A DNA stretch of 62,629 nt, from positions 1 to 62,629 of the forward strand of contig JAAEQW010000116.1 of assembly GCA_024231025.1 (NCBI GenBank). The letters are read 5' to 3'. Position 1 is the stretch's first letter. Every line of letters starts with the position of its first letter. The notes under the pieces were generated by a model. The model had not been told where the DNA came from and made no database searches. It saw nothing but the letters and a program-made list of their open reading frames with translations. Below, piece by piece: positions 1 through 62,200 of the stretch. The stretch comes from Candidatus Omnitrophota bacterium (GTDB lineage: Bacteria; Omnitrophota; Gorgyraeia; Duberdicusellales; 4484-171). A program made the translations under genes and the position numbers.

Positions 1-2
1 AA

Positions 3-3000
3 AACGGCAGGCCATTTGCCCCAAGTACAATAACCAGCGAACGCCGTCAACTTGGTAAAAATTATCTGGAGATACTTACTGACGGTGAGTGGGTTAGTTC
101 ACCCGATCGCGGACGGGAACAGGCATATCGCTTAAGTGATGATTATCGCAAGCTTAAACGCGATAACTTAAAGAGAGCTCTTTCAGGAGATCTGGCAGCG
201 ATTGAACATATGGATTCTGCAATGATTCCCCCGATGGAATTTGCTAACGTGAAAAGAGCAGTGAAAGGGCTATTCAAACTGAAGCCATCTACAAAAGAAG
301 GTTCTGACGCAGTTGCGGCCGCAAAAGCAAGAAACGCGAAAGTTTTAAGTGTTTTTGTAAAAGGTTCACGGAATGAGGATAAGAACGTTCGAGAGAGGTG
401 CGTAAGGTCATTAGGAACCGCTCTAGAAAGAGGCATCGACATCGGAGAAGATGGCGAAAAAGCTTTAGAAGAAGCTTTGAGTGATGATGACCACTTTGTT
501 CGAGAAGTAGCCGCAGCTGCAATAGCAAAAGGTTTGAATAGCGCGGGCGCCAATACTCGAGTCAATACCCGAGTGAGACGGGTAACAATGTTAGGAAGCG
601 CTTTTGATTTAGAAGGAGAAATACATATTGGAGAGGACGTTTTAGCAGTCTTAGGAAGAGCGTTAAAGGATCCGGATGAAGATGTCCGAGAAGCAGCCGT
701 AGCTGTAATAGCAAAAGGCTTGAATGGTGCAAATAAGACTGTTCTAGTAAGATGCATAACGATGTTAGGGGATGCCATAGAAGAAGGAATCGACATCGGA
801 GATGCCAATTTTCAGACTTTAGAAGAAGCCCTGGATAGTGTATATGACAATGTTTTAGAAGCAATTGCAATCGCAATAGCAAAAGGCTTGGATAGTAGGA
901 ATCCCAACATTCGAGCAAATTGCATAATAATAGCAGCAAACGCTATAGAAAGAAAGAACGATATCGGAGGGTATGGAATAGCCGCCACACAGAAGGCTTT
1001 GTTTGCCAAAGACGAAAAGGTTCAAAAAGCAGCTATGCAGGCATTAAGGGTTGGCTTAAGCAGTACACATGAAGATCTTCAATCAGCATATGTGACAATA
1101 TTAGTGGAGGCTTTAGAAAATGGAATTAAGATCGAAGACGATATCTTAGATGTCTTAACGAAAATTGTGGATAAAAAAGATTCACCCGTGAGAGAACGTG
1201 TAATGGAAATCTTAGAAAAAGAACTGACAGCAGTGGACGAGGCAGGTGCATCAAGCGATAAACAAAAAAAACCATCTCTCAAGGGGCAGGAGGGTTATTG
1301 GCCTGTGTTTAGCAATATGACTAACGGTCTTGCAGATATTTTGGAGAGAATTTTTAGCAAAGAAGAGAAAACCCCGGTAGTTAATCCGCTTTTAAAACCG
1401 GAAGAACGCTTTGATGCTCGGGTTGCGCGGGTGATGAAGAGTTTTGAAGATAAGTTTTTCTACACCGAGGATGAAGCTCAAAGTATTGATCTTGGTTCTT
1501 TAGATTACTCAATGTATGAAAACGGCGAAATCGTTAATCGTTTTGGTGTGGCAACGCGTGCAATTAAGAAGTTAGTATCCGGTGATAAAGGTCAGGTTAT
1601 GATTAAGGTAAGGTATCTTAATGGAGTATTTTTTACTACAGAAGATGTTAGGTTAAGTATTTTTGAAGGCAAAGTCATTGCTTATTTTAAACCATACACT
1701 CCGAATCCTATTTACGTTGATGTGAGCGATCAGGAAATTTTGGTAGGTCGAGACTGGGATCTTTTGGATCATAAAGTCGAGGAAATTTTTGGTTCAAAGG
1801 ATAGTGTTCGTAGCGAGGGGTTTGTTCAATCGCTTTATACTACTTTAGTTCGTCCACCTATTGCTGTTGCGTCTGGCGATTCATATCTAATGAAACTAAG
1901 GCTTCGTTCTTCTGTATTACAGGGAAGTGCCACAATGGAAATAGAATCGTCAATAATGCCGAGTTCTCAATTGGTGGATGATAAGCACTTCACAAAGAAA
2001 CGTTTGTTTTGGAAGAAGAAGATTGGGGATATTTCACGTGATGATGTTGAGAGAGCTTTAAATGAATTTATTGTTCGACGTTTGCTGGTAGACCGAGATC
2101 CAGCAAGGGAGCTAGAGGAAAAAAGAACAGAAGTGTTTATAGACAATGTTGATAATACGAATCTTTCGGGGTTGTTGCGTTTGGAGATTATTCATAAGAT
2201 TATTTCTGATGTTGACAATCAGGAAGTTGTAAGTGCTTTAGGCAGAGCCATTGATGCCCTTGATTTAGGAGAGGATGGAGTTGCGGAGAGGCTTGTTGGG
2301 GTTCGTGACGCAATTAGAGGGTTGTCTGTGTCTGGTGAAGATCGCTTTAAATCAACATACACTTCTTTGCAGCTCTTGATTAGTGGCAAATTTGTTCGTG
2401 TTTTAAAAGATAAAAATGCTGATCGTGATTCATCTGTTAATAAAGATGAGCCTGTCGTAGCGGATAAAGATCGCGAAGAAGAAACGGTACCAGCTGTTGA
2501 GGATAATCCATCTGCTAACAAAGGCAGGGTTAAGGTTTTTCAAACTTCTCCCCACCCACATTATGGTCAATCTACAGTTGAATTTTACGAAAACGACAGT
2601 GCCGAAGAATTACTTGAAAAACTCGCTCATGCAATTTCGACATTAGCTAAGCTATTGCCAGAGAAAGGCGATATGGGCATTTTGAGGCATGATCCCGTTC
2701 TTCTAAGATTTTTAGATGTTACTGTGAGCGAAAGAGATAGCGATCAAGACATTTACAATAAAGTAATAAAAGCTATATCTGTTAAGACGTTTATCGCGAC
2801 GCAGTTAGTAGGTTACGAAGCTAGTGATACTAGCCTTGAATGGTTTGATGGTGCTATGCGTTATATCTTGGATGGTGCACCGTCGCTAACGCATTTGCAA
2901 ACGGGAGGAAAAATTAATAAGGATAACTTTGGCAGCGTAGGCGGATGGAGTGACGACCGCGACCCCAACGGCTCGCCTTGGCAGCTTTTAGGTGAAATGG

Positions 3001-6000
3001 CAGCAGTTGCTCACGCGATAGGGTGGCTAGCAAGTGAAGATGGCCTTACCCTTGGGGGGATAATGTATTACATGATTTATTCGCGTTCTCCAAGCATAGT
3101 ACGTGAAGAACTTGAGATCTTAATTAATTTAGGGGTTATCGAAATCGCCGAAGTAGTTGATGGCACTAACCATTATCGGTTTGTACCAACCATAAGAGGT
3201 TTAGCTGGCAATTCAGATATGACAGGCGTATCAAGGATAGCCCACTTACTTAGCAGAATCAGAGAGATTGATTTAGGTTATCGCGCTTACCGTCGCAAAG
3301 GTACTAAGCCTTTGTATTGGGGTAGTATTCCCGGTGCTGCACTTGATGAAGCTGCTGAATTAGCGCAAGTAGAAATTCTCCATGCCTATGTAGAAGACAT
3401 CGAGCACAGCAAAGATGTTTTGCACTTTTTAGAAAGTGATGACTCAGATAGAGCAGGCAGGCTGTTTGAAGTTGCAAAGCTAGATCCGGCTAATGATGCA
3501 ATAAAAGAAATAGCAACGAAACTAATTAATCAGCGGGTTATGCAAGAAAAGGCAGTAATTAAATCTTGGGTGGACAGAATTTTAGAGCAAGGAAATAACA
3601 GCGTTCCCTTTTCTGCTCCACCGGTTATTATTGAAGCGCTAAACCAGAATATTTTTACTCCAAAAGAGATAGTCGATTGGATGAATCAGTTGTTGGATCG
3701 AGGAGATGTCTGGAGAATGCTTACGGCAGCTCTTACGATTACTGAGGCAATGAAGTCGGATTCTTTTAGGGAAAGTGAGGGTATTTCGGGAGAGATAATT
3801 GCAACTTTTGCCTCGCGAATGATTGGTAGGTTTGATGTGCCAGTTGAAGGTTTAGGGCTAGGTTCACATATGGCCGATAGCATTTTTACTGGAGAGACCG
3901 ATGAGAGTTTTTTTACTCAAAGAACCATTCAAAAACTTATTGATAAGCTAATGAAGCAAGGAGCGATTAACGAGGCAAAGATGATTGCCGATAAATTTTC
4001 AGAAGTTAACCATCCAAATTCAGTTGATATGGAAATCATTAATGGCGACGAAGCGAAAGAGTCTGATGATGTTGCAAAGGCACAGAAGTATCTTGATGAA
4101 GCAATACGTCTACTAGCTAAGGTTGATTCTAGAAAACTTGACGGTCTTTCTTTTCCCGTGGCAGATACAATAAGTATTCCTTATGTTTCGCTTGCGATTG
4201 ATCTGGTTAATTGGTTAGAAGGTCAAGGGAAAGCTAGCAAGGTGCACCTAGAATTTAGGCAGTACTTGAAGGAAGGCAAGCGTGGAATGAGATTAAAACA
4301 GGCTGTGGGCTATGACAATGAGGTTGACCGGGCGGTTTTAGAGGCTTGGCGAGCGATGAAAGGTAGGAACGTGGATGGGGCAATGCATGGTGTAAGTAAG
4401 GTTATACATCTTTTAGGTAACGCAGAACATGATGAAGCCGGAGAAACAGATTCGCTGGAAAATGTAAGCATACTTCTTGGGGTTACTCGCTGGCTAAATA
4501 GCGAATTAGCAATGGAACCAAAGCACCTATATCTTGAGCAATTAGTGAAGGCCAAGAAAACCGGAATGGAACTTAGAGAGGCGCTAGGTTATCCTAGTGG
4601 GCTTATTGATGCTAGCAAGTTAACCCATGTAAAGGTTCGTTTTCTTTGTGGCAACGGTTTCGAACCTCTGCCGTTTTTTGATTTTGTCAAAGAAATGGTG
4701 AGAATGGGTTTTAAGTTGGAAAAAGCTTCTTCCGTTAGCGATAAGTCTGATTCTGTGTCTTACAAAAGGCTTTCTGCGATGATGAAAAGGGGTGATTTCG
4801 ATCCCGCTGATTTTTATTTAGAGGATGTTTTTTTTGCCAAGAAAAGCGATGATTTGTGGTATGCGGTAGTCGATAAAGAGCATGGTTCTGTTTCTTATAA
4901 GGAGTTTTTTAATGCAATAAAAGCAAGTGGTCTTAGCCTTGACGATGTTGAAGTTGGCATGAATCAAGAAAAGACTGAAGCATTCTTGGTGGAAAAAAGC
5001 TCTCTTCCTAATGTAGCCGATAGCGCTGAAACGATGATCAACGGAGATGCAGGTCCATTTAACTATCTTTTTGGGTTGAGCGCAACATCGCCAATGATTG
5101 CAAGTGCAGTAGCGCAGTTGAACCGAGCGGGAAAAACAGATGACGCAAGACATTTAGAAGAGATGTCTATTGAAGAAGGTGTCACTGCAGAGGTGATCTT
5201 AGAAGATGACGACGACCCCACCTCTAAAGGTTCACCCGCGGGGCTTTTGGTTTTTGTCGCAAATAACGATGAATTGTTAGATGAATTATTGAAGGACCGT
5301 GGAGTTACCGATGGTGAAATGGCGGCAATTATGATTCGCCATGACAGAAGAAACCGCCAAAACGGCAAGCCATTTGCCCCAAGCACAATAACCGGCGAAC
5401 GCCGTCAAGCTGGTCAGGATCAGTTGGAAATATTTGTTGAAGGGGAAAAAGTTTCTCGGAGTGAAAGCCGTGGTCAGTGGAGCCAAGCCTATCGGCTAAA
5501 CGATCAATTGCGTGATCTTTCAAGAAATAGGTTAATTCATACCCTTAAAACCTTAGCGGCTATTGAGTTTATGGCGAGAGCAAGTATTCCAGAAAACGAA
5601 TTTGAAGGAGTAAAAACAAAAGCGAAGCGAATAATCAAGGAGGCTTTTGATCAAGAAGCTTTAGCCGTTGCAACTAGGGATGGCTTGATACAACAGGTAG
5701 TAGGTCTTTTAAATGAAAGGGCTTCTTACCAAGAGTCGGTTAGTGATAGAGATTGGGAAGCAAATACCAAAGCGATAGTCAAATTACTTAGAGAATTGGG
5801 TTATAAATCAGACAGCCAAGCCAAGGGTATTTTCCTGAGTTTAGCATTGTCGCCAAGGAGCGGTCCAAAAGATGTAATTATTCGAGAGCTAAAAGAATTA
5901 GAAGCGCTTGCTAATGCTGAAAAAAGAGTTTACCCCATAATGCATCCACCGTCTCAAGAAGGTGGCCGGGTGGTATTGGATGTTCGTCTAGATCCAGTAG

Positions 6001-7223
6001 CACGGCGTGCATTTCCAGTTGGTTCAAGGGAGCTTACCATAAGAGAAGATCTTGAGCCTGAATTACCTCCTCGCAAAGCTCGTCTTTCTCCCATGGTTAC
6101 GATTGAGCCGATGGAGCCAACAAAGCCAACAAAGGCAAGTGATTGGCAGCGTGAAGGTACAGAAGACTTAAACCTTGAGGGCCATATAAAGCGCCGCAAG
6201 CGAAGGGCAAACTCGTTGGAATGGTTGAAAGATGAAGAGGTCATCGACGAGATACTTTCTAGTGTTGCGGATAAAGATGACGACGATTCGGCTCCCGATG
6301 GTGCACCGGCGAATGTGTTTAAAATTGTTTTTGATGTTAGTGCTGCGGATGATGCTTATGATGAATTAGAGGAAGCGATTTTAGAGGAAGAGATTTCAGA
6401 GGAAGAGATTTTAGACGAAGATGAAATGGATGTTGATGGGATAGATAATGCCGCAATAGAAATAGACGCAGGTATGTTGCTTGATCCTGTTGATGAACCT
6501 GATTCTGAGGAAATAGTTCAAAGGAACATGATAAATGAAAACATAGGGATTAATGGTAATGACGTTACACTATCTTGGCTGATGAGTATGGTTAATCAAA
6601 AGAGGAAAGGTGCCCTAGGAAAGAGAAGCATTAGTCAGGCAACTATCAAGCGAGACACTAATCGCCTTGAAACAGCAGGTCTGGTTGAGAAAAAAATAGA
6701 ATCAGATGGTATCGTATTAATAATACCTACAGTAGAGCTAGATGACGAACAGGCAGGAGCTATTTATGCGGCGCTAACTAATGTTCCAAGGCGCTGGGAT
6801 CCAAGTGTAAAAGACGTTCAGGAAATCGTGCTTGGAGCTGTGGCGCAATGGCCAGTATTATATGGGAAAATAGAAGCAAATCAAAAACCAATTGCCTCTC
6901 CTTATCCGGGCGGCATTAAGGGTGGTATCGACTACGGCACGATGGATGCCACGGTAGATGTGCAAAACGAAGGCATCTATAAGATGACAATGCAGGAACT
7001 ACCATTTAAGGTTGAAAGTGTTGCCGGACTTCGGGCTAATGTTTTAATGGTATCAAAAATTGACGATCCTAACCAGGTCTTTGTTTCAAGAAGAAACAGG
7101 GAATTTGCCTCTTCAAAGGCACCGGTTAGGCCCAATCGTAAGCCTGTTCCAATGCCGCAGCCACTTTGCTTAGCTGCAGTAGCGATGATTAGAGAGAGGT
7201 CAAATAAAGTAGCTAAAAGCTAA
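3..7223 (+). CDS. Giant multidomain protein, 5'-truncated by the window edge (2406 codons visible); HEAT-like repeats, acidic tract, winged-helix-like segment; function unknown
   Basis: Track ORF 210..7223 stays open in the same frame back to base 3, with no in-frame stop and no ATG/GTG/TTG before 210. The upstream in-frame peptide NGRPFAPSTITSERRQLGK... is a paralogue of NGKPFAPSTITGERRQAGQ... encoded at 5359-5500 of the same ORF, so coding continues off the left edge. D/E-rich tract at ~6240-6500. SISQATIKRDTNRLETAGLVEKK (wHTH-like) at ~6624-6700. Confidence 0.85.
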   Translation, partial: NGRPFAPSTITSERRQLGKNYLEILTDGEWVSSPDRGREQAYRLSDDYRKLKRDNLKRALSGDLAAIEHMDSAMIPPMEFANVKRAVKGLFKLKPSTKEGSDAVAAAKARNAKVLSVFVKGSRNEDKNVRERCVRSLGTALERGIDIGEDGEKALEEALSDDDHFVREVAAAAIAKGLNSAGANTRVNTRVRRVTMLGSAFDLEGEIHIGEDVLAVLGRALKDPDEDVREAAVAVIAKGLNGANKTVLVRCITMLGDAIEEGIDIGDANFQTLEEALDSVYDNVLEAIAIAIAKGLDSRNPNIRANCIIIAANAIERKNDIGGYGIAATQKALFAKDEKVQKAAMQALRVGLSSTHEDLQSAYVTILVEALENGIKIEDDILDVLTKIVDKKDSPVRERVMEILEKELTAVDEAGASSDKQKKPSLKGQEGYWPVFSNMTNGLADILERIFSKEEKTPVVNPLLKPEERFDARVARVMKSFEDKFFYTEDEAQSIDLGSLDYSMYENGEIVNRFGVATRAIKKLVSGDKGQVMIKVRYLNGVFFTTEDVRLSIFEGKVIAYFKPYTPNPIYVDVSDQEILVGRDWDLLDHKVEEIFGSKDSVRSEGFVQSLYTTLVRPPIAVASGDSYLMKLRLRSSVLQGSATMEIESSIMPSSQLVDDKHFTKKRLFWKKKIGDISRDDVERALNEFIVRRLLVDRDPARELEEKRTEVFIDNVDNTNLSGLLRLEIIHKIISDVDNQEVVSALGRAIDALDLGEDGVAERLVGVRDAIRGLSVSGEDRFKSTYTSLQLLISGKFVRVLKDKNADRDSSVNKDEPVVADKDREEETVPAVEDNPSANKGRVKVFQTSPHPHYGQSTVEFYENDSAEELLEKLAHAISTLAKLLPEKGDMGILRHDPVLLRFLDVTVSERDSDQDIYNKVIKAISVKTFIATQLVGYEASDTSLEWFDGAMRYILDGAPSLTHLQTGGKINKDNFGSVGGWSDDRDPNGSPWQLLGEMAAVAHAIGWLASEDGLTLGGIMYYMIYSRSPSIVREELEILINLGVIEIAEVVDGTNHYRFVPTIRGLAGNSDMTGVSRIAHLLSRIREIDLGYRAYRRKGTKPLYWGSIPGAALDEAAELAQVEILHAYVEDIEHSKDVLHFLESDDSDRAGRLFEVAKLDPANDAIKEIATKLINQRVMQEKAVIKSWVDRILEQGNNSVPFSAPPVIIEALNQNIFTPKEIVDWMNQLLDRGDVWRMLTAALTITEAMKSDSFRESEGISGEIIATFASRMIGRFDVPVEGLGLGSHMADSIFTGETDESFFTQRTIQKLIDKLMKQGAINEAKMIADKFSEVNHPNSVDMEIINGDEAKESDDVAKAQKYLDEAIRLLAKVDSRKLDGLSFPVADTISIPYVSLAIDLVNWLEGQGKASKVHLEFRQYLKEGKRGMRLKQAVGYDNEVDRAVLEAWRAMKGRNVDGAMHGVSKVIHLLGNAEHDEAGETDSLENVSILLGVTRWLNSELAMEPKHLYLEQLVKAKKTGMELREALGYPSGLIDASKLTHVKVRFLCGNGFEPLPFFDFVKEMVRMGFKLEKASSVSDKSDSVSYKRLSAMMKRGDFDPADFYLEDVFFAKKSDDLWYAVVDKEHGSVSYKEFFNAIKASGLSLDDVEVGMNQEKTEAFLVEKSSLPNVADSAETMINGDAGPFNYLFGLSATSPMIASAVAQLNRAGKTDDARHLEEMSIEEGVTAEVILEDDDDPTSKGSPAGLLVFVANNDELLDELLKDRGVTDGEMAAIMIRHDRRNRQNGKPFAPSTITGERRQAGQDQLEIFVEGEKVSRSESRGQWSQAYRLNDQLRDLSRNRLIHTLKTLAAIEFMARASIPENEFEGVKTKAKRIIKEAFDQEALAVATRDGLIQQVVGLLNERASYQESVSDRDWEANTKAIVKLLRELGYKSDSQAKGIFLSLALSPRSGPKDVIIRELKELEALANAEKRVYPIMHPPSQEGGRVVLDVRLDPVARRAFPVGSRELTIREDLEPELPPRKARLSPMVTIEPMEPTKPTKASDWQREGTEDLNLEGHIKRRKRRANSLEWLKDEEVIDEILSSVADKDDDDSAPDGAPANVFKIVFDVSAADDAYDELEEAILEEEISEEEILDEDEMDVDGIDNAAIEIDAGMLLDPVDEPDSEEIVQRNMINENIGINGNDVTLSWLMSMVNQKRKGALGKRSISQATIKRDTNRLETAGLVEKKIESDGIVLIIPTVELDDEQAGAIYAALTNVPRRWDPSVKDVQEIVLGAVAQWPVLYGKIEANQKPIASPYPGGIKGGIDYGTMDATVDVQNEGIYKMTMQELPFKVESVAGLRANVLMVSKIDDPNQVFVSRRNREFASSKAPVRPNRKPVPMPQPLCLAAVAMIRERSNKVAKS
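400..1260 (+). repeat. HEAT/PBS-lyase-like helical repeat array (protein level) inside the left giant ORF
   Basis: Recurrent VRE(V/A)A.A.IAKGLN motifs with matching DNA: 497-540, 684-727 and 852-895 all contain ...gcaatagcaaaaggcttg.... They alternate with (E)RGIDIGEDG-type turns. Confidence 0.55.
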
Positions 7224-7299: not shown

Positions 7300-7560
7300 A
7301 TCAGCCGCAGGTAAAATCTATTTTTGCGAAGGCTTGATGTCCGGTTCGTCTCCACGCGCGGAGCCGTGGAGTTCTTTGTTGCGGGCATTTTGCTTATCGA
7401 CTTTTCACCGATTACGTTCAAAGGACTCATGTGCGAAGCAACAAATAGCTATTTTACCGGAGGCACCAGCTTACTTCGCTCAGAATACCATGCTTTTAAG
7501 GCCTCAGGGCCTGCCTGCCCGCCGGCAGGCGGGCGGTACATGTCCCCGAGCAACAGACTT
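7300..7560. other. G+C-enriched, strongly self-complementary non-coding island (structured RNA candidate or degenerate repeat cluster)
   Basis: ggtaaaatctattt (7308-7321) is complementary to aaatagctattttacc (7443-7458). Inner hairpin ctccacg...cgtggag (~7349-7370). G+C hairpin gcccgcc-ggca-ggcgggc (7517-7534). cggtacatgtccccg (7534-7548) is an arm of the palindrome found inside the right giant ORF. Track ORFs 7324..7578 and 7334..7642 look like artefacts. Confidence 0.35.
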
Positions 7561-10256: not shown

Positions 10257-11159
10257 ATGGAAAGATATTATTCGTTTAATAGGTATTTAAAAAGCATCTT
10301 TGGTTCTCGCGTGCATCGCATTGGTATTAATGCGGGATTTAGTTGCCCTAATATCGATGGTACTTTATCTGATGATGGATGCAGCTATTGCAACAATAAG
10401 GCATTTGGGGTGTATGTTCGTTGTGACGCTGAAATAAAGAAGCAGATAGAAGAGTCGATTAGCTTTTATAAGCAACGCATGGGGGTCAACCAATTTATTG
10501 CTTATTTTCAATCTTTTAGTAACACTTATGCTGATCTTGACAGGTTGAAACAAGCCTATAATGTAGTGAGGAGTTTTCCTGAGATTGCTGGAATCTGTAT
10601 ATCTACAAGACCGGATTGTGTTGATGAAGATAAGATAAGGATGATTTCGCAGTATAAGAAAGATTATCTTGTCTGGATCGAATACGGATTGCAAACGACA
10701 AGCAACAAAATGCTACGAGCTATAAATCGCAACCATACCTATGAAGATTTCCTTTTTTCATTAAACTTAACTAGAAAGTATAAAATTAATGCTGGCGTGC
10801 ATATGATTTTAGGCTTACCTAAAGCAACTCATCAAGATATGATGACAGACTGCCATAATTTAGCCAAGCTTGATTTGCAAGGCATAAAATTTCATGTTCT
10901 ACATGTTTCGAAAAATACCTCCCTCGAGAAGGCCTACAATAAAGGCGAGGTAAGGCTTATGACCGAGGCTGAGTATATAAGCGTTGTGTGTGATTTTCTG
11001 GAGTGCTTACCGCCGACGATTGCGATATTGAGACTTGCGTCAACCGCCTTTAAGGATTATTTAATTGCGCCTAGTTGGACTAGCAATAAGTCGGTAGTTA
11101 TCGAAGGCATAAGAAGAGAACTAGTTAAGAGAAATACTCATCAGGGGTGTAAGTTATAA
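10257..11159 (+). CDS. TIGR01212-family radical SAM protein (YhcC/YtqA-like)
   Basis: RVHRIGINAGFSCPNIDGT...GCSYCNN N-terminal cluster region; about 300 aa. Confidence 0.75.
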   Translation: MERYYSFNRYLKSIFGSRVHRIGINAGFSCPNIDGTLSDDGCSYCNNKAFGVYVRCDAEIKKQIEESISFYKQRMGVNQFIAYFQSFSNTYADLDRLKQAYNVVRSFPEIAGICISTRPDCVDEDKIRMISQYKKDYLVWIEYGLQTTSNKMLRAINRNHTYEDFLFSLNLTRKYKINAGVHMILGLPKATHQDMMTDCHNLAKLDLQGIKFHVLHVSKNTSLEKAYNKGEVRLMTEAEYISVVCDFLECLPPTIAILRLASTAFKDYLIAPSWTSNKSVVIEGIRRELVKRNTHQGCKL

Positions 11160-11340
11160 GTTATAAGTTGTAGGTCATAAGTTAGCGTAAAACTAAAAAC
11201 GAAAAACGTAAAGCCATAGCGTAAAATTTAAAACCAAATGGATTCTTTATTCCGGAAAGAAATTTTGAATTTTGAATTATGGTTTTTCGCTTTTAGCTTT
11301 TCGTTTTTAGTTGATTTTTTATGACTTACGACTTCACAAG
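11150..11340 (+). repeat. Family-B dispersed long-hairpin repeat (copy B1)
   Basis: ...agcgtaaaactaaaaacgaaaaacgtaaagccatagcgtaaaatttaaaa...ttccggaaa...tttgaattatggtttttcgcttttagcttttcgtttttag.... The arms are mutually complementary. About 90% or more identical by eye to 32800-32990 and to the reverse complement of 30537-30709. Confidence 0.85.
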
Positions 11341-11357
11341 GAACTTGTGAATAAGCC

Positions 11358-11385
11358 TTGATAGCATGGCGAAATAGCGTATAAT
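11358..11385 (+). promoter_or_regulatory. Sigma70-like promoter upstream of nadE
   Basis: TTGATA (11358-11363), 16-nt spacer, TATAAT (11380-11385). Confidence 0.5.
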
Positions 11386-11424
11386 ATTTTTTTACCATGA
11401 ACCCTGTTCGGTCTTTAGACTTTA

Positions 11425-13300: not shown

Positions 13301-13321
13301 GACTGAATTGTGGAGGTAAAA

Positions 13322-53122: not shown

Positions 53123-53209
53123 CAAGCGATACCTATTATTATTAATAATAATATTACTATTACTATTAATATATAGGGGCGGGTTTTAAAATCGTCCGTC
53201 ATAAAAATT

Positions 53210-56200
53210 ATGAGAAAAGGAACAACACATTTTAAAGCGATTGCCAGTTTTTTGGCTACTGCAATATTTCTTTCTAGCTTTGCTGTTTATTTTAGCCAAT
53301 TGACAACAAAAAGTTATGCGTCAGTCCTTCCTTATATGCCATCGCCAACAAAATTACTTAAAGTAAGCGATCAATTTAATTATCCGGTTTTATGTGGAAT
53401 AAAGTTTTATCCGCAGGATCCATTCAAATTTGATTTTGTTATTGATAAAAAAGATTCTAATATCGCTGACGGAGAGATTAAAGAAGAAGCCTTAAAGTTG
53501 ATAAGATACTTTTTGTCTTCAGTGGCAATTCCCGAGGATGACCTTTGGGTTAATCTGTCGCCTCATGAGGAGAATTCAGTTATTCCTCACGAACTTGGTT
53601 TAACCGATTTGGGAAAAGATATGTTAGGTGAAGATTATGTTTTAAAACAACTCATGGCGTCATTGGTTTATCCTGAGGAACCGGTTGGTAAGAAATTTTG
53701 GGAGAAGGTTTATGCTCGTGCGTATGAATTGTATGGAACCACTAATATTCCAATTGATACTTTTAATAAGGTTTGGATTGTGCCCAAAACAGCAGTGATT
53801 TATGAAAATGGTAATAGTGCTTTTGTTGGTAAAGCGCACTTGAAAGTAATGCTTGGGGAGGACTACGTTGCCCTTCGACGAGCTCAGGATTCTACACAGC
53901 AACATAGTCAGACTCCCGCCTTTGGCGGGACAAGTGCCGACGATAGATTCCCGCCAAAGACGGGACAGGCGCCGACCAAAGACCAGATAAACAATATTTC
54001 ATCTCAGATAATGCGCGAAGTGGTTTTACCGGTAATTGAAGAGGAAGTCAATCAGGGCGAGCACTTCGCTATTTTGCGCCAAATTTACCATTCTTTAATT
54101 CTTGCAACCTGGTTCAAACGCCGTTTACGGCGTTCAATTGACAGTCTGCGGGGACATGTACCGAAAGCGCAGGCCGAAGGCCGAGAACGGTACGTGTCCC
54201 CGGAAGCAAAGACTAACATCCTAGACAAAATATACATTGATCAGAAGAAGATCAAAGGCATCGAAGGCACGGATCCTCAAATAAAAGATAAAATCTACAA
54301 TCAATACTTAGAAGCTTATAAAAAAGGTGTCTATAACTACATCAAACGCGATTACGACCAGCCTTCAGGCAAGCACGTTAACCGCAGGTATTTTTCTGGT
54401 GGTATGGCAATGCGTATTTTATCAAATATGGAAGTTATAGAGATAGATGAAAACTCTACAGAAAGCATGCCAGTGCCTCAGGCTCCAGTCGGAGGCACTT
54501 TCAATTTACTTGGCGTGGGATCCGGCGGCATTCTTATGAGCCCACCGCCAATACCTCCTGTGCCACCATCAGGAACTCCGCCTGGTTCGCCTTCTGACGG
54601 TCCGCCAAGAGGCGAAGGCGTCATCGCTAGAGTGGAGCGGTTACTTGCAGCTGGTAATTACGAACAAGCAAAAAACATGGCGGTAGATAAAATCAAAACC
54701 AAGGAGATTAGGAGCAAAGAAAAAATTGATCAATGGATGTATAAAATGCTAGGAAGTGCTCAGTGGCCTTGTGCTCGAGCAATAGTAGATGAGGCAATAG
54801 GGGTGGGAATTTTTACTAAAAATGAGATTATCGAATGGGTGGATGAATTAGTAAGGGAAAAGCACATTGACCACGCTCACGTTGTTATGATTGGAGCAAT
54901 AGAGAAAAATATTTTGCCTGGCAATGATGCCGATAAAGAGAAAATTAAAAAATGGATTAGTGATTTGACAGCGGCAAGGCATCCCATCGATGTTGGTCTT
55001 ATTAATCGGGCAATAACGTTAGCAAATGCCTTCAACAAAGATGAAATTATAGTTTGGGTGAATGAATTATTGGCGGAAGGAAGAAAACATGAGGGTACCT
55101 CTTGTGATATTATAGTCGCGGCAATCGAGAAAAAGATTCTAACCGTCGAGGATAAATCAATAATCATAAAATGGTTAGATCCATTAATGGATCAAGGATT
55201 TATTGGTGCAATTTACTTTATTGTATCTGCTGCAATAGAACATGATGTTTTTGATAACGAAGATGTTTCAGAGGCAATTCCAAAACTTGTAGGCGATGAA
55301 GATAGTGCAAAAAAACTCATCACCGAGTATTTCAATAAAAAAGGTTGGCTCCACACCGGTCTTAACCAAGATTGGGCGCAAGTGTTAGCAGGAGAAGACA
55401 TTGAAGAAAAGCTCAAAAACCATCACGATCAATATGTAGAAGTTATTCTAACCCCTGCCGGTGAAGAGCGCACTAAAGCGGCGATGGCCCTGCGGGAATG
55501 GTTGTATTTAGGTGGGAATAATAGCCCAACGCCGCTTACCAAGATTGAACTCGATATTGAGCTTCTTAATATGTACAAACTCCCTTGGGACGATTTCTGC
55601 GAAAAAAGAGCGCGCTTTGGTGATCGCATTTATGATGATCCGGCGGAAGTGGTTGCCGAGCTTATAGGGGGGCATGAATTTGGGGCCGAAGAACAAAAGC
55701 GGATTAGGTTTGTAGAATCGTATCTAGGCGGCAGAAGTTTTTCAGGAACAGTGGAGAGAATGACGGCAGAATATATTGTTGAGGGAAAGATTAAGAGCAA
55801 GGCAAAGATTTTTGAATGGATCGATCGGCTTGGGGATAACACTAGTGTGAAAAGTCTTGTCGATGCGGCCGTAAAAGCTGGAATTATTACATATGCAGAT
55901 AATGTCCGAGTTAAAGCCTGGGTGAACAGATTCTTAACTGACAGGAGATTTGTGGTTTCCTCATGTGACATTCTCCGCACGGCAATAAGGGCGAAGATTA
56001 TAACCAAGGAAGATAAATTAAAAGTTGAAGAATGGATCGACGAGTCTATAAGCCCAGGGAATAGTTTTCTGGTAAGTACTGCGATAACTGAGGCAATTGA
56101 TGGTGAAATTCTAGTTGACCAGGATAAGGAGAAAATTATTAAATGGGCCGATCAGATCGCAGGTTTGGACTACCATAAGGAAAAGGCAGGAGTTGCTCTT

Positions 56201-59200
56201 ATGGCAAAGGTGGGTGTCGAAAAAGAAATATTTAGCAAAAAAGACATTATTGCCTGGTTTGATCGATTGATAGCTGAAGCGCTTTGGGATTATGCCAGTG
56301 CAATTTCTCAGGCAGCGCGTAGTTGTGATCTTTACGATCGGCACGATGCCCTGGAAGCGATTGAGAAATTAAGAGGAGACGATCCAAGCCGGGGCGATCC
56401 AATTGTTTCTTATTTTTTCAATAAAGACATGTGGATCCATACAGGCATTAATGAAACCTGGGCGCAGGTATTGGGCGATCCGAAATTTGAGGAAATGATC
56501 CAAACTCCGCACAAGCAATTTGTTGGGTACCCGCGTGATATGTATAGAAAAGTGATTACTGCCACGGGCGAAGACCGTCTTTTAAAAGCGATGGCTCTAA
56601 GGGAGTGGATGTTCCTGGGAGGGCCTTTGAGTCCTAAGTCATTTCATGAGATTAAGATTGATCCAGTTTTGGTTGACCTCTATCGTTTACGCTGGGACGA
56701 CTTCTGCGAAAAAAGAGCGCGCTTTGGTGATCGGATTTACGATGATCCGGCGGGAGTGGTTGGTGAGCTTATAGCAGGGCACACATTCCCAGATGAGCAA
56801 GATGACCAGTCGCCACCACCATCCGCACCATCTTCGTTACCACCATCCTCAGATTCACCTGTAGTGAGCGAAGTCGAACTACCACAAGGAGGTTCTTCTG
56901 CGGAGGCTAAGCTTATTGTCGAGGTGGATCGGTTGATTGAGGAAGAGAATTTCGATGATGCAAAAAGATTAACAATAGATGGAATAAAGGATGGAACTAT
57001 TAAGGGTAAAACAAAAATTCGAAAATGGGTGAATCAATTGATAGAGAAAAATGCAATAACTCCTGCCAAGGCTATTGCAATCATAGCAATAGAGGCAAAG
57101 ATTTTTACTAAAGATGAGATTACAGAATGGATTGATGGACTATTAGCGAAAGGTGGAGTGGATGTGCGCGTTGTCAGTCCTATTACGTGTACGGCGATAA
57201 AAGCAAAAATCTTAACTCGTGACAACGAAGCGAAGATTGTAACATGGGTGGATGGGTTGGTAAATATAGGTGATAGGTATCTTGCTGGCCTTATCGTTGT
57301 TGCAGCAATCGAGGCAAATATTTTGACTGGTCAAAATAAACTAAAGGTTGAAGAATGGATAGATGAATTAATAAAGGAACGAATTAGGACCGACATTATA
57401 GTCGCGGCAATAAAATCAGAGATCTTAACCCGTGATGACAAACCAAAAATCATAGTATGGATAGATGAATTGGTGAAGAGAGAGGATGACGGAGAAGGTT
57501 GGGGTTATGCCTTTGATATCGCCGTCGCAGCAATAGAGTGCAATGTTCTTGACGGGGTTGATGCGTTGAATGTAATTTCAAAGTTTATAGGTAGTGAGTA
57601 TGAAGAAGAAGTGGGAGGTCTCGTTACTAAATTCCTTGATACTGGCAAATGGTTCCACACTGACGTTCCCCAAGATTGGGCGCGAGTTTTAGATTATCCC
57701 GAGATTGAGAACAGGCTCAAAAACCACTGTGACCAATATACCAAAATTATTCTGACCCCTGCCGGTGAAGAGCGCACTAAAGCGGCAATGGCCCTGCGGG
57801 AGTGGTTGTTTTTAGGTGGGGATGAAAGCTCCAAACCGATTGCAGATATTAAACTCGACATAGAACTCCTTAATATGTACAAACTCCCTTGGGAAAAGTT
57901 CTGCAAACAAAGAGTGCGGTTTAGTGATAATGATATCTATAACCGGCCTAAAGAGGTTGTTGCCCAGCTTGTGGGGGAGAATGCGTTTGAGGGCGGAGAC
58001 AATCCAGAATTAATCGCTAAGATCGATCGGTTGATTGCGCAGAATAAACATCAAGAAGCAAGAATTTTAGTAGTAGAAAAAATTGTAGATTGGGTTGATA
58101 AACTACTAGTAAAAGGAACAATGCACCATAGCGAAGCTATTGCCATTGCAGTAATAAAGCCAGGGGTTTTTACCGATAACGATAAAGGAAAAATTTTAGA
58201 GTGGATGGAACAGTGGAAAGAAAACCATATAAGAGGATTTCGTTTGATAAATATATCCCCAGTAATAGAAGCAAAGATTCTAACCCGCGAAAATGTATCA
58301 AAGATCATGGAGTGGATAGATTTGTTGATAGAAAAGGGAGATTGTTCTTCTGCTAAGGATGTCGCATTTGCAGCAATAGAAGGGAATATTTTCTATACGG
58401 CGGATGCTTTAGGAGTAATTTCAAAATTTACTCATTATAAGAAAGAGTTTGAAGCAAAACAATTTGCCACCGAATTTCTCGATAAGGGTCGATGGCTCCA
58501 CACCGGTCTTAACCAAGATTGGGCGCAAGTATTAATAGGGGCAAACATCGAAAAGAGACTAAAAGACCACCGCGATGAATATATAGAAGTTATTCTAGCC
58601 CCTGCCGGCGAAGAACGCACTAAAGCGGCAATGGCCCTGCGGGAGTGGTTGTTTTTAGGTGGGGACGAGAGATCTAAACTGTTTGCTGAAATTGAACTTG
58701 ATACAGAGCTTCTTGATCTTTACCGCTTACGCTGGGACGACTTCTATTATCAAAGAGCGCGGTTTAGCAATGACGATATCTATAATAATCCTAAAAAGGT
58801 TGTTACCCGGCTTGTGGAGGCGTATGTGTTTGAAAGTGATGAATCGCAGCTTATTATCGGAATTGATCGGTTGATTACACAGAAGAGATATCAAGAGGCA
58901 AGAATTTTAGCAGTTAAAAGAATTGCAGCAGGTGAAATTGCAGACAAAGAAAAGATTGTAGATTGGGTTAATAAATTGCTAGTGAAAGGAGCAAGAGCTC
59001 ACAGCGAAGCCATTGCCGTTGCAGCAATAAAGATAGAGATTTTTACTGAGAACGATAAAGGAAAAATTTTAGAGTGGATGGAACAGTGGAAAGAAAACCA
59101 CATAGGGGGATTTTGTTTGATGAGTGTACCCCCTGCAATAGAAGCGAAAATTTTAACTCGTGACAATAAAACAAGGATTATAGAATGGGTAGATTCGTTG

Positions 59201-62200
59201 ATAGAAAGAAGAGATTATTGTTCTGCCAAGGATGTCACATTTGCAGCAATAGAGGGGAATATTTTCTATGCGGCCGATGCTTTGGTAATTTTAAAACTTG
59301 TTCATTATAAAATAGAGTTTGAAGCAAAACAATTTGCTACCGAATTCCTCGATAAGGGCAAATGGTTCCATACCGATGTTCCCCAAGATTGGGCGCAGGT
59401 GTTAACAGGGGCAAATATCGAAGAGATGCTCAAAGACCACCGTGATCAATATATTGAAGTCATCCTAGCCCCTGCCGGCGAGCAACGCACTCTTCGTGCG
59501 ATGGCCCTGCGCGAGTGGTTGTACCTAGGTGGGAATGAGAGCCCTACAGCACTTAGCGATATCACTCTCGACCCAATCCTCATTGATTTCTACAAACTCC
59601 CTTGGGAAAAGTTCTGCAAACAAAGAGCGCGCTTTGGTGATCGGATTTACGATGATCCGGCGGGAGTGGTTGGTGAGCTTATAGCAGGGCACACATTCCC
59701 AGATGAGCAAGATGACCAGTCGTCACCACCATCCGCACCACCTTCGTTACCACCTCCTTCAGGCCCACCTGTAGTGAGCGAAGCCGAATTATCTCAAGGA
59801 GGTTCTTCTGCGGAGGCTAAGCTGATTACTGAGATTTACAGGTTGGTTGAGACAAGGGAGTATTCAGAAGCAAAAGATTTAGCGGTAAAAGGGATTAAGC
59901 GGGGAGATATCAATAATAAAGAGAAGATTCAAGAATTGGGTATTTGGTTAGCAAAAAAGACTCGATCGACTTCCATTTCAGTTGATGATATCTATCCCAT
60001 TACAGTTGCTGCAGTAGAAGCTAGAATTTTTAATCAAGATGAAATTATGGATTGGGTGGATGAATTTCGAAAAATAGATGATGCAACTGTAGCAAGCAAG
60101 ACTGCCCTTGCCGCAGTGGAAGCTGGAATTTTCAACACAGATGAAATTGTTAAATGGGTTTACAGGTTAACAGTAGAAAGAAGGGGGCAAGGGGGTGCGA
60201 TTGTTGCTTGTCATATGGTTGAGATGTTGATAATGGAGCGTAAACCCTTTAATAATAAAGAAATTATAGAATGGGTGGATATATTACTAGACGCAGAAAG
60301 TCTTTATATTTCTACTGCCATTGTGGTCAGTGCGATAAAAGCAAAGATTTTAACCAGTTACGACAAGACAAAGGTTATGGAGTGGTCGATGCGGTTTTCG
60401 CATGAATCACTCGATGGCAAGATAGTTACTAGCCCTATAGTGGTAGCAGCGATAAATGAGCACATTTTAACTAGCGACGATAAAACAACAGTTCTGGAAT
60501 TGATCGATAAAATAGCAAACGCAAGTAACGTTTTGGATACATTATCGCCTATAGCGGTAGCAGCGATAAATGAGCACATTTTAACTAGCGACGATAAAGC
60601 AACAGTTCTGGAATTGATTGATAAAATAGCAAACGAAAATGACAATTCGGATATATTGTGGCCCATGGTGGCGGCAGCGATTAATAAGCGCATTTTAACT
60701 AGCGACGATAAGGCAAAGGTTGTGGAATGGATTAATAAAAGATTGACCAAGAATGCAATTTTGATCGATCTTCCTTCTAACGAATTTGTCCTTGTGGCCA
60801 AAAAAGAAGAACTGTTTGATTCCAGTGATGTTTTATGGCTGGTTAATAAATATATTGAACATGGGCAAAGAGATCAAGCCATAGAATTCATCATTGAACT
60901 TATTAAAGAGAATCAATGGCTCCACACCGGTCTTAACCAGGATTGGGCGCAGGTGTTGGCAGGAGAAGACATTGAAGAAATGCTCAAGGGTCACCAAGAT
61001 CAATACGCCGAAGTCATTCTAACCCCTGCTGGTGAAGAGCGCACTAAAGCGGCGATGGTCCTGCGAGAGTGGTTGTACTTAGGTGGGGATGAGAGTTCCA
61101 AATCGCTTGCTGAGATTGCACTCGACATTGAACTCCTTGATCTTTATCGTTTGCGTTGGGGTGATTTCTGCGAAAAAAGAGCGCGCTTTGGTGATCGGGT
61201 TTATGATGAGCCGGCGGGAGTGGTTGAGGAGTTTGCCGGAGACCATGAGTTTGAGGGTGATGGAGGCAACCCAGAATTAGTTGCCGAAGTAGATCGATTG
61301 ATTGAGGTAGGGGAATACGAAGAAGCAAAAGATCTCACCACCAAATTACTTGATACTGGCAAATGGCTCCACACCGACGTTTCCCAAAACTGGGCGAAAG
61401 TGCTTGATGATCCAGTAGTTGAAGAGATGCTTAAGCATTACCGTGATGATTATGTGGCGATGATTCTTGCTCCGTCTACCGAGCGTCTCTCTCGGGCGAT
61501 GGCTTTAAAGGAAGCGTGTTACCTTCGGTCAATCGGCCAAGGCGAAAATCCTTCCGACATCAAACTCAGCCGCATCCTTGCACATTTCTACAAACTCCCC
61601 TGGGAAGAGTTTCATAAAGAGAGAATGCGCGATAGTAATAGTATTTATCATGATCCAGAAATGTGGTCTCTCGATATCGCGGATAAGTATGAATATGAGA
61701 GTAGTCAAGATATTCTAGGAGTAATTGCTGAAATTGACCGGATAGTTGCGAAGGAAAACTATAGAGAGGCGAGGATTTTAGCGGTAGGACATATAAAAGC
61801 TGGGAGAATTAATGATAAAACAAAGATTAAATTTTGGGTAGATGAATTGTTGGCTCAAACCGGTAGTTTACATTCTTCAACTAGCGGCAATGCAATCGCG
61901 GTTGCGGCAGTACAAGCAGATCTTTTTACTAAACGAGAAATCCAATCCTGGATAGATGAATTATTGGCTCGGAGTGATGTTGAGAGTACGGCAGGGTGTG
62001 CTCGTGACATTGTAGTTGATGTAATCGAAAGAGATATTTTTACTCAAGAATACAAAGAAGTCATTCAAGCTTGGGTAGGCATAATGTTAGATCGAAGGGA
62101 TGCATTTGGTGCACATGGCAGCTGGGGCATTACGAGTGCGGCAATAGAAAAGGAAATCTTCGGCGCGCCAGAAGTATTGCCGATAATCACAAGACTTCTA

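Follow-up and report, generated by a model that had tools for sequence, protein, structure and literature searches.

In the exported proteins of the TpsA/FhaB/CdiA two-partner secretion type and of the Rhs/MARTX type, a signal peptide and a conserved N-terminal domain are followed by a long repetitive middle and a variable functional part, and many paralogues occur. Cargo proteins that carry a T9SS CTD or a sortase/exosortase signal share a conserved C-terminal sorting domain.

In the phylum Omnitrophota, a class of very large proteins named Archaeovorins has been described, characterised by a length of >30,000 aa, numerous TM helices, and divergent SecA DEAD/preprotein-binding, glycosyltransferase, methyltransferase, NUDIX and peptidase domains (West-Roberts et al. 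2023, bioRxiv 10.1101/2023.11.21.568195). In that preprint HEAT repeats are the commonest Archaeovorin domain; they are placed outside the cell by prediction, with a proposed role as binding surfaces. According to a second preprint, contig boundaries routinely interrupt the long ORFs of Omnitrophota, a signal peptide or TM segment is present in ~94% of these ORFs, HEAT repeats provide repeat scaffolding, and the reported giants average about one TM helix per 400-1,000 aa (Nielsen & Lui 2026, bioRxiv 10.64898/2026.06.07.730766).

The stretch of DNA analysed here (the window) comprises 62,629 nucleotides of a contig from an Omnitrophota genome, and both its left and right edges lie within long ORFs. 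The left-edge ORF is the subject of this report. The features discussed, all on the forward strand, are as follows; P0001 to P0009 denote related proteins from database searches.

3..7223, forward: left-edge ORF of 2,406 codons plus stop, its 5' end cut off at the window edge
3..278, forward: module A (aa 1-92), paralogous to aa 1787-1879, which shows that coding extends upstream of ATG210
321..1277, forward: HEAT-repeat array of about six units of ~59 aa (aa ~107-425), from Pfam and internal repeats
2949..3488, forward: family module 'NGSPxQLLGE...GLTL...VREELxILINLGVIEIA...YRF...EIDLGYRAYRRKGTKPLYWGSIP' (aa 983-1162), with three copies in P0001 at 44-58% identity
3396..4010, forward: helical repeats including 'IFTPKEIVDWMNQLL' (aa ~1132-1336), with relatives among the tandem repeats in the right-edge ORF
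3948..4619, forward: a family module of ~100 aa, present twice in tandem (aa 1316-1539), with matches in P0002-P0009 at 30-46% identity
5361..5639, forward: module A' (aa 1787-1879), internal paralogue of the left-edge peptide by self-alignment
6303..6482, forward: acidic tract (aa 2101-2160), 40-45% D+E
6627..6692, forward: SISQATIKRDTNRLETAGLVEK segment (aa 2209-2230), DeoR-type HTH-like but sub-threshold (Pfam HTH_DeoR)
6915..7220, forward: conserved C-terminal region (aa 2305-2406), with GGIDY at aa 2307-2311 and then a basic Pro-rich tail at aa 2361-2406
7350..7371, forward: terminator-like hairpin, 127 nt past the stop codon, a consensus match only, such matches being no more numerous than in shuffles
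53207..62629, forward: sister gene of at least 3,141 codons counted from its Met, left incomplete by the right edge

In frame 3 no stop occurs between nt 3 and the TAA/TAG at 7221-7223, a span of 2,406 sense codons; stops are reached by nt 31 and by nt 56 in the remaining two forward frames. From nt 3 on, the first possible in-frame start (ATG/GTG/TTG) is the ATG at 210, and no Shine-Dalgarno-like sequence was seen upstream of it. Self-alignment matched aa 1-92 to aa 1787-1879 with 54% identity over 94 aa (E 6e-23), and the 69 codons lying 5' of ATG210, taken alone, gave a local score of 165 against 35 +/- 4.6 for shuffled sequences (maximum 55, n=1000). The two copies have diverged in the manner of coding sequences: nt 1-88 and 5359-5446 are 81% identical as DNA, 19 of 41 identical residues are specified by different synonymous codons, and most differences fall at third positions. 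The paralogue score and this pattern of substitution together indicate that the stretch before ATG210 is coding and that the gene is cut by the window edge. Met70 (ATG210) pairs with an internal Met of the paralogous copy and is therefore not a start; this alignment and the coding signal upstream rule ATG210 out as the true start codon. An antisense ORF at 143-808 was set aside as a probable antisense shadow of the HEAT-coding frame. The left-edge gene continues leftwards beyond the window, which the open frame to nt 3 and the paralogous first 92 aa confirm, as a preliminary description of this DNA had claimed; the "giant" size that it also assigned to the gene is unproven, the visible minimum being 2,406 aa.

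The sister gene, which the preliminary description missed, begins with a signal peptide or anchor and a domain referred to here as the N-domain (53207-54466), which is followed by tandem repeats of 280-430 aa; no C-terminal region is reached before the right edge. The right end of the window lies in a 95%-identical repeat, its final 169 nt matching 59566-59734 at 94.7% identity. The contig looks broken at both ends in long repetitive genes. Joining the two edge ORFs as one gene on a circle was considered and rejected, as the frames do not continue into each other (a codon is completed at nt 62629, and frame 1 meets a stop at nt 31); a 62.6-kb circular replicon with dnaE, infB and aminoacyl-tRNA synthetases is also implausible. 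Phage origin was ruled out by the core bacterial neighbours rpe, eno, dxr, ispG, infB, dnaE and the aminoacyl-tRNA synthetases. A search of the window against Rfam returned the tRNA only.

Both edge genes have a raised GC content, and the excess sits in GC1. Their GC3 equals that of the housekeeping genes in the window; the higher GC therefore reflects amino-acid composition, the left-edge gene is native on this measure, and horizontal transfer was discarded as an explanation.

Within the left-edge ORF, two Pfam families scored above their gathering cut-offs, both over aa 107-236: HEAT_2 (PF13646; 6e-10, 39.6 bits against a cut-off of 27.7) and HEAT (PF02985; 1.7e-6, 28.2 bits against 23.5). 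Self-alignment carries the repeats on to aa ~425. The array resembles bacterial HEAT-repeat proteins of the Pfam HEAT_2/HEAT/HEAT_EZ clan in its roughly six tandem helical-hairpin units above gathering cut-offs, but unlike in those proteins HEAT repeats make up only ~13% of the visible ORF, the remainder consisting of lineage-specific modules. Among these, the helical repeats at aa ~1132-1336 match the repeats of the right-edge ORF at 24-28% identity (E 4e-8 and 1e-7) and were also recovered by a motif scan. The consensus of the ~100-aa module reads '...EAIRLL..VD...L....FPVAD......LAI..V..L........LE....L..G..G..LK.A.GY'. A 15-nt tandem repeat at 6366-6421 lies inside the region coding for the acidic tract.

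These results uphold most of the architecture given in the preliminary description. The HEAT repeats, the D/E-rich tract and, by composition, the basic Pro-rich tail are all present, and the domain order listed was essentially correct; the PBS-lyase type of HEAT repeat that it named was not specifically matched. Its view that no enzymatic motif is present also holds, as Pfam, NCBIfam, PHROGs and PDB sequence searches gave HEAT only, with no match for the whole ORF in PHROGs, NCBIfam or PDB sequences. The ~1,700 aa described as having no nameable motif, on the other hand, contain three recognisable family or paralogue modules.

Relatives were found by an exhaustive HMMER search with aa 440-1639 against 1.84 billion representative proteins, which yielded 8 matches. 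P0001 starts with the tail of an N-domain that is 66% identical to that of the right-edge ORF. P0002 is complete (1,393 aa), contains the ~100-aa module twice besides a signal peptide, and its N-domain is 49% identical to that of the right-edge ORF (E 1e-117). The ~100-aa module is also found in P0003, P0006 and P0009, each of which, like P0002, bears the N-domain. The earlier statement that the protein matches no family is thereby overturned, since its C-terminal 100 aa and two internal modules are shared with the N-domain-bearing P0001 and P0002, and these two proteins connect the left-edge ORF to an Omnitrophota family with at least 400 members.

The profile that defines this family comprises the N-domain plus module and finds at least 400 proteins, 120 of them listed at E 1e-127 to 1e-180. 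All phylum-labelled members are Candidatus Omnitrophota; among the matches listed, 26 of 30 organism-labelled names were Candidatus Omnitrophota or Omnitrophica, and the other four read 'bacterium' only. Two matches have the locus-tag prefix NTU54 in common, which places at least two paralogues in one MAG. The members share a layout in which a Sec signal peptide (N-termini resembling '...LLCFxLxFEQSGFA|Q') and a conserved N-domain of ~330-430 aa with the signature FWVNL.P ... R.Y[FY]SGG precede a variable cargo, and a C-terminal region starts from GG(I/V)D(F/Y/L). The cargo includes HEAT repeats, PGK, GAPDH, PGI, TIM, methyltransferases and HD, and in genomes the bracket of N-domain and C-domain was seen around PPDK (locus L008), an unannotated segment (L009) and HEAT repeats (L007). 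Relatives measure 350-1,400 aa as called, and the parts of one disrupted gene add up to roughly 2,850 aa. The N-domain is absent from the protein encoded by 1-7223; by comparison with the family, the missing 5' part would encode a signal peptide and an N-domain of about 330-430 aa.

The N-domain was modelled as an alpha/beta fold (pLDDT 74.5). Foldseek searches with the model gave nothing significant against PDB (best E 0.14, NheA/Mak toxins, TM ~0.1) or BFVD (best E 0.07), and a profile search against PDB sequences was empty; the N-domain is without a counterpart in Pfam, NCBIfam, PDB or BFVD. With no significant structural neighbour in PDB or BFVD, no mechanism can be read from the fold. A word-indexed protein search with the whole left-edge ORF and with its C-terminal 282 aa returned 0 matches, in an index that seems to lack P0001, P0002, P0003 and P0006. 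A scan of genome contigs for relatives gave only a weak HEAT match in an Oscillospiraceae MAG (L001), and a scan of metagenome contigs with the N-terminal 400 aa and the C-terminal 117 aa gave no match. Look-ups for identical copies of three proteins encoded in the window were likewise empty, and these scans yielded no sequence to the left of the window. A literature search for the family motifs found nothing relevant.

Most complete family members carry GG[IV]D[FYL] 100-125 aa before the C-terminus. In the left-edge ORF, GGIDY is the sole such motif in 2,406 aa and lies 99 aa from the end; the region after it looks beta-strand-like by eye. Over its last 100 aa the ORF shares 96% identity with the C-terminus of P0001, which apart from this stretch and the shared modules is divergent, and the region is 28% identical to the C-terminus of P0002 (E 3e-11). 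The C-domain of the main clade is helical and Cys-containing (GGIDFR.LPIVTQ...IPS.ERIKEY...). An hmmsearch comparison of the left-edge region with a 41-sequence profile of that domain was not significant, and hhalign aligned 17 columns around the motif with a probability of 25%; no homology of the C-terminal region of the left-edge ORF, P0001 and P0002 to the main-clade domain was detectable beyond the ~10-residue GGID motif. The three proteins make up a subgroup that differs from the main clade in its C-terminal region.

A conserved ~100-aa C-terminal region that follows variable cargo in signal-peptide-bearing proteins, nearly invariant between the left-edge ORF and an otherwise divergent relative, recalls the cargo of T9SS CTD and sortase systems. 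No CTD or sorting-signal model of Pfam or NCBIfam matched the left-edge ORF, however; a terminal TM helix followed by a basic tail, as in sortase/exosortase signals, is lacking, the hydrophobic stretch being ~9 aa only, and no cognate machinery was identified.

The same near-identity to P0001 could be taken as a mark of a non-functional locus, either a remnant of a decaying pseudogene or a chimeric assembly of repeats from different family members. The ends of the window also lie in or near repeated sequence, and several family genes in other MAGs are broken by IS elements, frameshifts or stops. A non-functional locus is very improbable given an uninterrupted frame of 2,406 sense codons at 42% GC, the chiefly synonymous and third-position differences between the paralogous copies, and a GC3 equal to that of the neighbouring housekeeping genes; moreover, DNA repeats inside 1-7223, the left end excepted, stay at or below 88% identity.

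We consider the left-edge ORF most likely to encode the C-terminal portion of a non-enzymatic scaffold or adhesin, built of HEAT and other helical modules, that is exported and belongs to an Omnitrophota-specific, highly paralogous family (probability about 0.6). ORF 3-7223 would be the 3' part of a longer Omnitrophota gene, cut because contigs end in the long repetitive genes at either end. The cargo of this member is non-enzymatic, comprising the HEAT array, the family helical modules, an acidic linker and possibly a winged-helix-like segment. The protein would be exported through Sec by means of an N-terminus lying outside the window and would then act in the envelope or at the cell surface as a protein-binding scaffold or adhesin, with the repeats as its binding surface, while the conserved terminal regions may serve in handling (export, anchoring or processing). 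A role of this kind has already been suggested for long HEAT-rich proteins of this host-dependent phylum. The signal peptide, the N-domain and export are predicted by analogy with the two relatives P0001 and P0002. Nothing within the window itself shows a membrane or surface location, as the visible 2,406 aa are without a hydrophobic segment (no 19-aa window with a mean Kyte-Doolittle hydropathy >1.6). A position outside the cytoplasm is also hard to square with winged-helix-like segments and with enzymes of cytoplasmic type among the family's cargo.

This hydropathy profile also bears on whether the ORF represents the last 2.4 kaa of a true Archaeovorin-type giant of over 10,000-30,000 aa, a membrane-threaded protein with many TM helices, SecA-like domains and enzymes, almost all of it lying to the left of the window. 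The likenesses are several: the source phylum is the same, HEAT scaffolding occurs in a long and largely Pfam-dark ORF, the left-edge peptide copies an internal segment in an internal duplication that has diverged at the DNA level, the ORF is cut at a contig end as is typical of long ORFs in the phylum, and the wider family places glycolytic enzymes, PPDK and methyltransferases, which overlap with Archaeovorin domains, behind an export signal. Against this, the visible part lacks the TM helices that would be expected at the reported spacing. Pfam searches (whole ORF at E<=1, tiles at E<=10) found no SecA DEAD, preprotein-binding, glycosyltransferase, methyltransferase, NUDIX or peptidase domain in it. 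Of the dockerin, EF-hand or bacterial TSP3 repeats that mark Dockerin-type giants (West-Roberts et al. 2023), only EF-hand_14 matched, under its cut-off (E 0.14-0.18). The ORF is demonstrated at 2.4 kaa and not >30 kaa, and its end resembles that of ordinary-sized family members, relatives with the same C-terminus being about 1.4-1.8 kaa. The family is further set apart by the N-domain, seen in relatives and the right-edge gene, together with the GGID-led C-terminal bracket, of which the available portions of West-Roberts et al. 2023 and Nielsen & Lui 2026 make no mention. We regard an Archaeovorin-type giant as unlikely.

Still less likely is a cytoplasmic HEAT and winged-helix protein with a role in DNA binding or in the organisation of chromatin or regulatory complexes, its likeness to exported members being due to shuffled modules; such a reading was implicit in the preliminary description. 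The winged-helix-like segment named there does resemble HTH_DeoR at aa 2209-2230 (E 0.02), with EAP30 and HVO_A0261_N matching weakly too, but its 15.1 bits stay under the cut-off of 21. DUF2582, another wHTH family, matched aa ~1000-1016 within the aa 983-1162 module at E 0.17, also sub-threshold, and the wHTH families other than HTH_DeoR gave E 0.12-0.26, below threshold. A weak Replic_Relax match in P0001, the basic tail and the lack of a TM segment in the visible part are compatible with a cytoplasmic DNA-binding protein. Every wHTH match nevertheless falls under its curated cut-off, profile searches of the aa 983-1162 and ~100-aa modules against PDB sequences were empty, and a single-sequence AlphaFold model of aa 2150-2406 (pLDDT 29) is uninformative and unusable for the wHTH or the C-terminal fold. 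The modules and C-terminus, moreover, recur in P0001 and P0002, two proteins with the N-domain that goes with a signal peptide.

A broader and rather doubtful reading is that the N-domain and the GGID-led C-terminal region are handling modules of an Omnitrophota-specific system that may export, process or display interchangeable cargo, namely HEAT scaffolds, glycolytic enzymes, PPDK and methyltransferases. The logic of the family architecture is that of TpsA/FhaB/CdiA and Rhs/MARTX-type polymorphic exported proteins. Pfam and NCBIfam searches found no TPS domain, haemagglutinin, RTX or RHS repeats in either edge ORF; unlike in two-partner secretion, no TpsB-like partner was seen, and the N-domain model, unlike those proteins, is an alpha/beta fold with no significant PDB neighbour. 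If such a system exists, the cargo might be displayed at the cell surface or carried to host or prey cells, the near-invariant last 100 aa of the left-edge ORF would be a sorting or anchoring signal with GGID as a processing site, and both edge genes would belong to it as members with expanded repeats. In that case the N-domain would represent a new fold, its sole structural echoes being ClyA-family pore-forming toxins, which were not significant, and the giant genes of the phylum might be built or have evolved from such units.

A long ORF cut by a contig end is expected and ordinary in an Omnitrophota genome. The useful result is the family, with hundreds of paralogues confined to a host-dependent, largely uncultured phylum and with interchangeable cargo, including normally cytoplasmic enzymes, bracketed between a signal peptide with N-domain and a C-terminal region. 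For annotators a simple rule follows: where one contig ends in an N-domain and another in a GGID C-terminal region, these mark the two ends of family genes, and such pieces may be complementary fragments. Members of 350-1,400 aa offer a tractable handle on the puzzle of the phylum's 30-150-kaa giants, in which HEAT scaffolds and glycolytic enzymes lie behind export signals, and on how such proteins are handled.

The ORF at the left edge of the window is most likely the C-terminal 2,406 aa of a repeat-expanded member of an Omnitrophota protein family, and the window appears to hold two members of this family:

3-7223, + strand: left-edge ORF, open at the left edge
53207-54466, + strand: family N-domain of the right-edge ORF, before the tandem repeats
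53207-62629, + strand: right-edge ORF, open at the right edge

Translation of the window keeps frame 3 open from nt 3 to the stop at 7221-7223 (2,406 sense codons); at this end the two other forward frames meet stops by nt 31 and nt 56, and every reverse frame is closed early. The ORF list begins at 210 because ATG 210 is the first start-type codon in frame, with no ATG, GTG or TTG in frame between nt 3 and 210 and no Shine-Dalgarno-like sequence found ahead of it. Self-comparison aligned aa 1-92 with aa 1787-1879 of the same ORF (54% identity, E 6e-23). The 69 codons 5' of ATG 210 gave a local score of 165 compared with 35 ± 4.6 (maximum 55) in 1,000 shuffles; of its 41 identical residues, 19 have different synonymous codons in the two copies, divergence is greatest at third codon positions, and Met70 pairs with a Met inside the second copy. 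The paralogue score, the synonymous pattern and the pairing of Met70 therefore establish that the stretch before ATG 210 is coding and under selection and that the gene is truncated at the window edge, as the preliminary description had claimed from the lack of a stop back to nt 3 and from the paralogous upstream peptide. A 221-aa ORF with a TTG start (143-808, - strand) lies antisense to the HEAT-repeat region and is taken to be a shadow of the HEAT coding frame and not a gene.

HEAT-type repeats were the only features that Pfam identified in the left ORF: HEAT_2 (6e-10) and HEAT (1.7e-6) scored above their cut-offs at aa ~107-236, and in the self-comparison the ~59-aa units continue to aa ~425. 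The HEAT repeats recognised by eye were thus borne out, and so were the D/E-rich tract (aa 2101-2160, 40-45% D+E) and the basic, proline-rich tail (aa 2361-2406). The winged-helix-like SISQATIKRDTNRLETAGLVEK segment matched HTH_DeoR at E 0.02, but with 15.1 bits, below the Pfam cut-off of 21, and two further winged-helix families matched the tile scanned alone at E 0.12-0.26; such sub-threshold matches are suggestive. A single-sequence AlphaFold model of aa 2150-2406 reached a pLDDT of 29. Searches of PHROGs, NCBIfam and PDB sequences with the left ORF gave no matches, and aa ~1132-1336 weakly resemble the repeats of the right ORF (E 4e-8). In no 19-residue stretch of the visible 2,406 aa does the mean hydropathy attain 1.6, hence the visible part is without a transmembrane segment.

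A word-indexed protein search with the whole left ORF and with its C-terminus returned 0 matches, while an exhaustive HMMER search of 1.84 billion representatives with aa 440-1639 matched eight proteins. One of these relatives, P0001 (1,394 aa, N-terminally truncated), opens with the last part of a conserved domain (66% identity to aa 361-416 of the right ORF) and carries three copies of the module at aa 983-1162 of the left ORF (44-58% identity); its last 100 residues share 96% identity with the left ORF C-terminus. These residues (P0001 aa 1295-1394, the counterpart of window 6915-7220) belong to proteins that are elsewhere 44-58% identical or unalignable, a pattern suggestive of either strong selection on a terminal signal or gene conversion between paralogues. 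A second relative, P0002 (1,393 aa), is complete with a signal peptide; its N-domain, the conserved region of ~330-430 aa after the signal peptide, is 49% identical to that of the right ORF (E 1e-117), it holds two copies of the ~100-aa module found at aa 1316-1539 of the left ORF, and its C-terminus is homologous to that of the left ORF (28% identity, E 3e-11). The N-domain and the 100-aa module also occur together in P0003 and P0006, and Pfam holds no model for the N-domain, the modules or the C-terminal region of these relatives. From the domains shared with P0001 and P0002 it follows that the edge ORFs represent opposite ends of a single protein architecture, the left ORF its C-terminal and the right ORF its N-terminal part. 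The earlier statement that the left protein matches no family is wrong, as both relatives tie it to a family bearing the N-domain.

A profile of the N-domain and module (family alignment A1), with scoring limited to 8,000 candidates, placed the family size at at least 400 proteins. For the 120 matches listed, E values run from 1e-127 to 1e-180 and lengths from 333 to 939 aa; 26 of the 30 organism-labelled matches are Candidatus Omnitrophota/Omnitrophica MAGs and the remaining four are labelled only 'bacterium'. Two matches share a locus-tag prefix, so at least two paralogues occur in one MAG. The N-termini of the family are classic Sec signal peptides ('...LLCFxLxFEQSGFA|Q...'), and the N-domain behind them has the pattern FWVNL.P ... 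R.Y[FY]SGG. The motif GG[IV]D[FYL], which begins the C-terminal region, was found in 48 of 128 sequences, mostly 100-125 aa from the C-terminus; GGIDY is its sole occurrence in the left ORF, 99 aa from the end, as compared to 99 in P0001 and 102 in P0002. Detectable homology between the C-terminal region of these three proteins and the helical, Cys-containing C-domain of the main clade is limited to ~10 residues around GGID, and the window genes form a distinct subgroup of the family.

Between the N-domain and the C-terminal region, together termed the bracket, lies a variable cargo. HEAT repeats are the cargo in 4 of 81 members, and P0037 is an intact 784-aa protein with HEAT cargo in an ordinary chromosomal setting; P0106 (537 aa), made of N-domain and C-domain, exemplifies a minimal complete member. 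Other cargo comprises phosphoglycerate kinase, GAPDH, phosphoglucose isomerase, triosephosphate isomerase, several SAM methyltransferases and HD, and in most of the 81 members nothing was recognisable. Enzymes of cytoplasmic type, PPDK (pyruvate-phosphate dikinase) among them, stand behind a Sec signal peptide and N-domain, and the same puzzling set has been reported for the Archaeovorin giants, a named class of Omnitrophota proteins.

Three genomic loci confirm the bracket of N-domain and C-domain. At L008 (10001-15326) the ORF with the N-domain shares 8 nt with a 1,426-aa PPDK ORF (11046-15326) that has the family C-domain at its end; at L009 (10001-14870) a 726-aa ORF with a terminal C-domain comes after an N-part ORF; and at L007 (10001-19769) an IS transposase (DDE_Tnp_1) and three ORFs come after the N-part ORF, two of the three being HEAT and the last having a terminal C-domain. 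The N-part and these three ORFs sum to roughly 2,850 aa. Division into N-part and C-part ORFs is frequent, through an IS in L007, the 8-nt overlap or frameshift in L008 and a stop in L009, and may reflect pseudogenisation, phase variation or sequencing error. The best family match, P0009, has the N-domain, the 100-aa module and a GGVDF C-domain and occurs on prophage-like contigs (L004 7259-9937, L005 6442-9120, L006 10001-12679), flanked on one side by tail genes (tail L, NlpC/P60, a GpJ-like 1,527-aa protein) and on the other by an rve-type integrase and a DNA methylase; in this it resembles a phage-carried cargo gene. The Omnitrophota MAG bearing L009 also has an intein in each of gyrB, gyrA and glmS (Intein_splicing), with LAGLIDADG in glmS (L009 1-7545).

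AlphaFold2, given the right ORF N-domain and 81 family sequences, predicted an alpha/beta fold that combines two beta-hairpins with long helices (pLDDT 74.5, pTM 0.71). Foldseek found no significant neighbour for this model in the PDB, the best being the NheA/Mak toxins of the ClyA family (E 0.14, TM ~0.1), and nothing significant in BFVD; profile searches of PDB sequences with the N-domain and both internal modules were empty. The handling domains therefore give no mechanistic clue so far.

The right ORF is open in frame 2 (+) from 53177, with a first Met at 53207, and runs to nt 62629, which makes at least 3,141 codons. Its first part is a hydrophobic signal or anchor segment, and tandem repeats of 280-430 aa follow. 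Repeats of high identity are where short-read assemblies break, and the contig probably broke inside one here, since the final 169 nt are 94.7% identical to 59566-59734 and 92% to 56693-56824. The window thus looks like a whole contig with long repetitive genes at both ends; for Omnitrophota MAGs, bioRxiv 10.64898/2026.06.07.730766 describes long ORFs that contig boundaries interrupt and that are annotated as truncated proteins.

The window is a piece of bacterial chromosome and not phage. Nearly all genes are on the + strand, and the neighbours include rpe, queH, nadE, eno, tRNA-Met, an OmpA-family gene, uppS, cdsA, dxr, rseP, ispG, a PilB/GspE-type ATPase, proS, rimP, nusA-infB, trpS, scpA, ruvB, lgt, tgt, trmD, rnhB, folD, guaB, guaA, dnaE, hisS, aspS, recO, apbE and panB. 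GC is 0.42 at both ends and 0.36-0.38 elsewhere; the end genes equal the housekeeping genes in GC3 and have their excess in first codon positions, so the difference stems from amino-acid composition and does not indicate transfer. The ATPase gene (T2SSE, 21693-22934, +) stands isolated between ispG and proS, with no further secretion or pilus genes near it within the window. Downstream of rimP, a single 1,035-aa ORF (24710-27817, +) joins NusA domains (aa 4-376) in frame with IF2 (aa 398-1013). NusA and IF2 are normally encoded by two separate genes, and the fusion may be a trait of the lineage or an artefact of assembly or of a frameshift.

P0001 and P0002 suggest by analogy that the missing 5' part of the left gene would encode at least a signal peptide and N-domain (~330-430 aa), which would bring the full protein to at least about 2,800 aa; the label 'giant' given in the preliminary description is unproven. 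As its visible cargo of HEAT and helical modules is non-enzymatic, the best-supported function would be that of an exported protein-binding scaffold or adhesin in the envelope or at the cell surface; the homology relations, the truncation and the family signal peptides are solid, while export, location and role are what we infer. According to bioRxiv 10.1101/2023.11.21.568195, HEAT is the most frequent domain of Omnitrophota giant proteins, and these HEAT repeats are predicted to be extracellular and proposed as assembly or binding surfaces; bioRxiv 10.64898/2026.06.07.730766 reports signal peptides or TM segments in about 94% of long Omnitrophota proteins. The Archaeovorin type has many TM helices, SecA-like domains, glycosyltransferases and other enzymes, and the Dockerin type has dockerin and TSP3 repeats, whereas the visible left ORF has none of these; nor did Pfam and NCBIfam reveal TPS, RTX or RHS features in it. 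The left-edge protein would work in the manner of such long exported multi-module proteins but belongs to no named type. As first framed, the finding of a long gene cut by a contig end is real and ordinary for Omnitrophota. Pfam and NCBIfam hold no model for the bracket family, no mention of it was found in the accessible parts of the two preprints, and a literature search with the family motifs gave nothing relevant. Both window members are truncated and unusually long, and the gain lies in recognising a large family, restricted to Omnitrophota, whose terminal modules are conserved and whose cargo is interchangeable.
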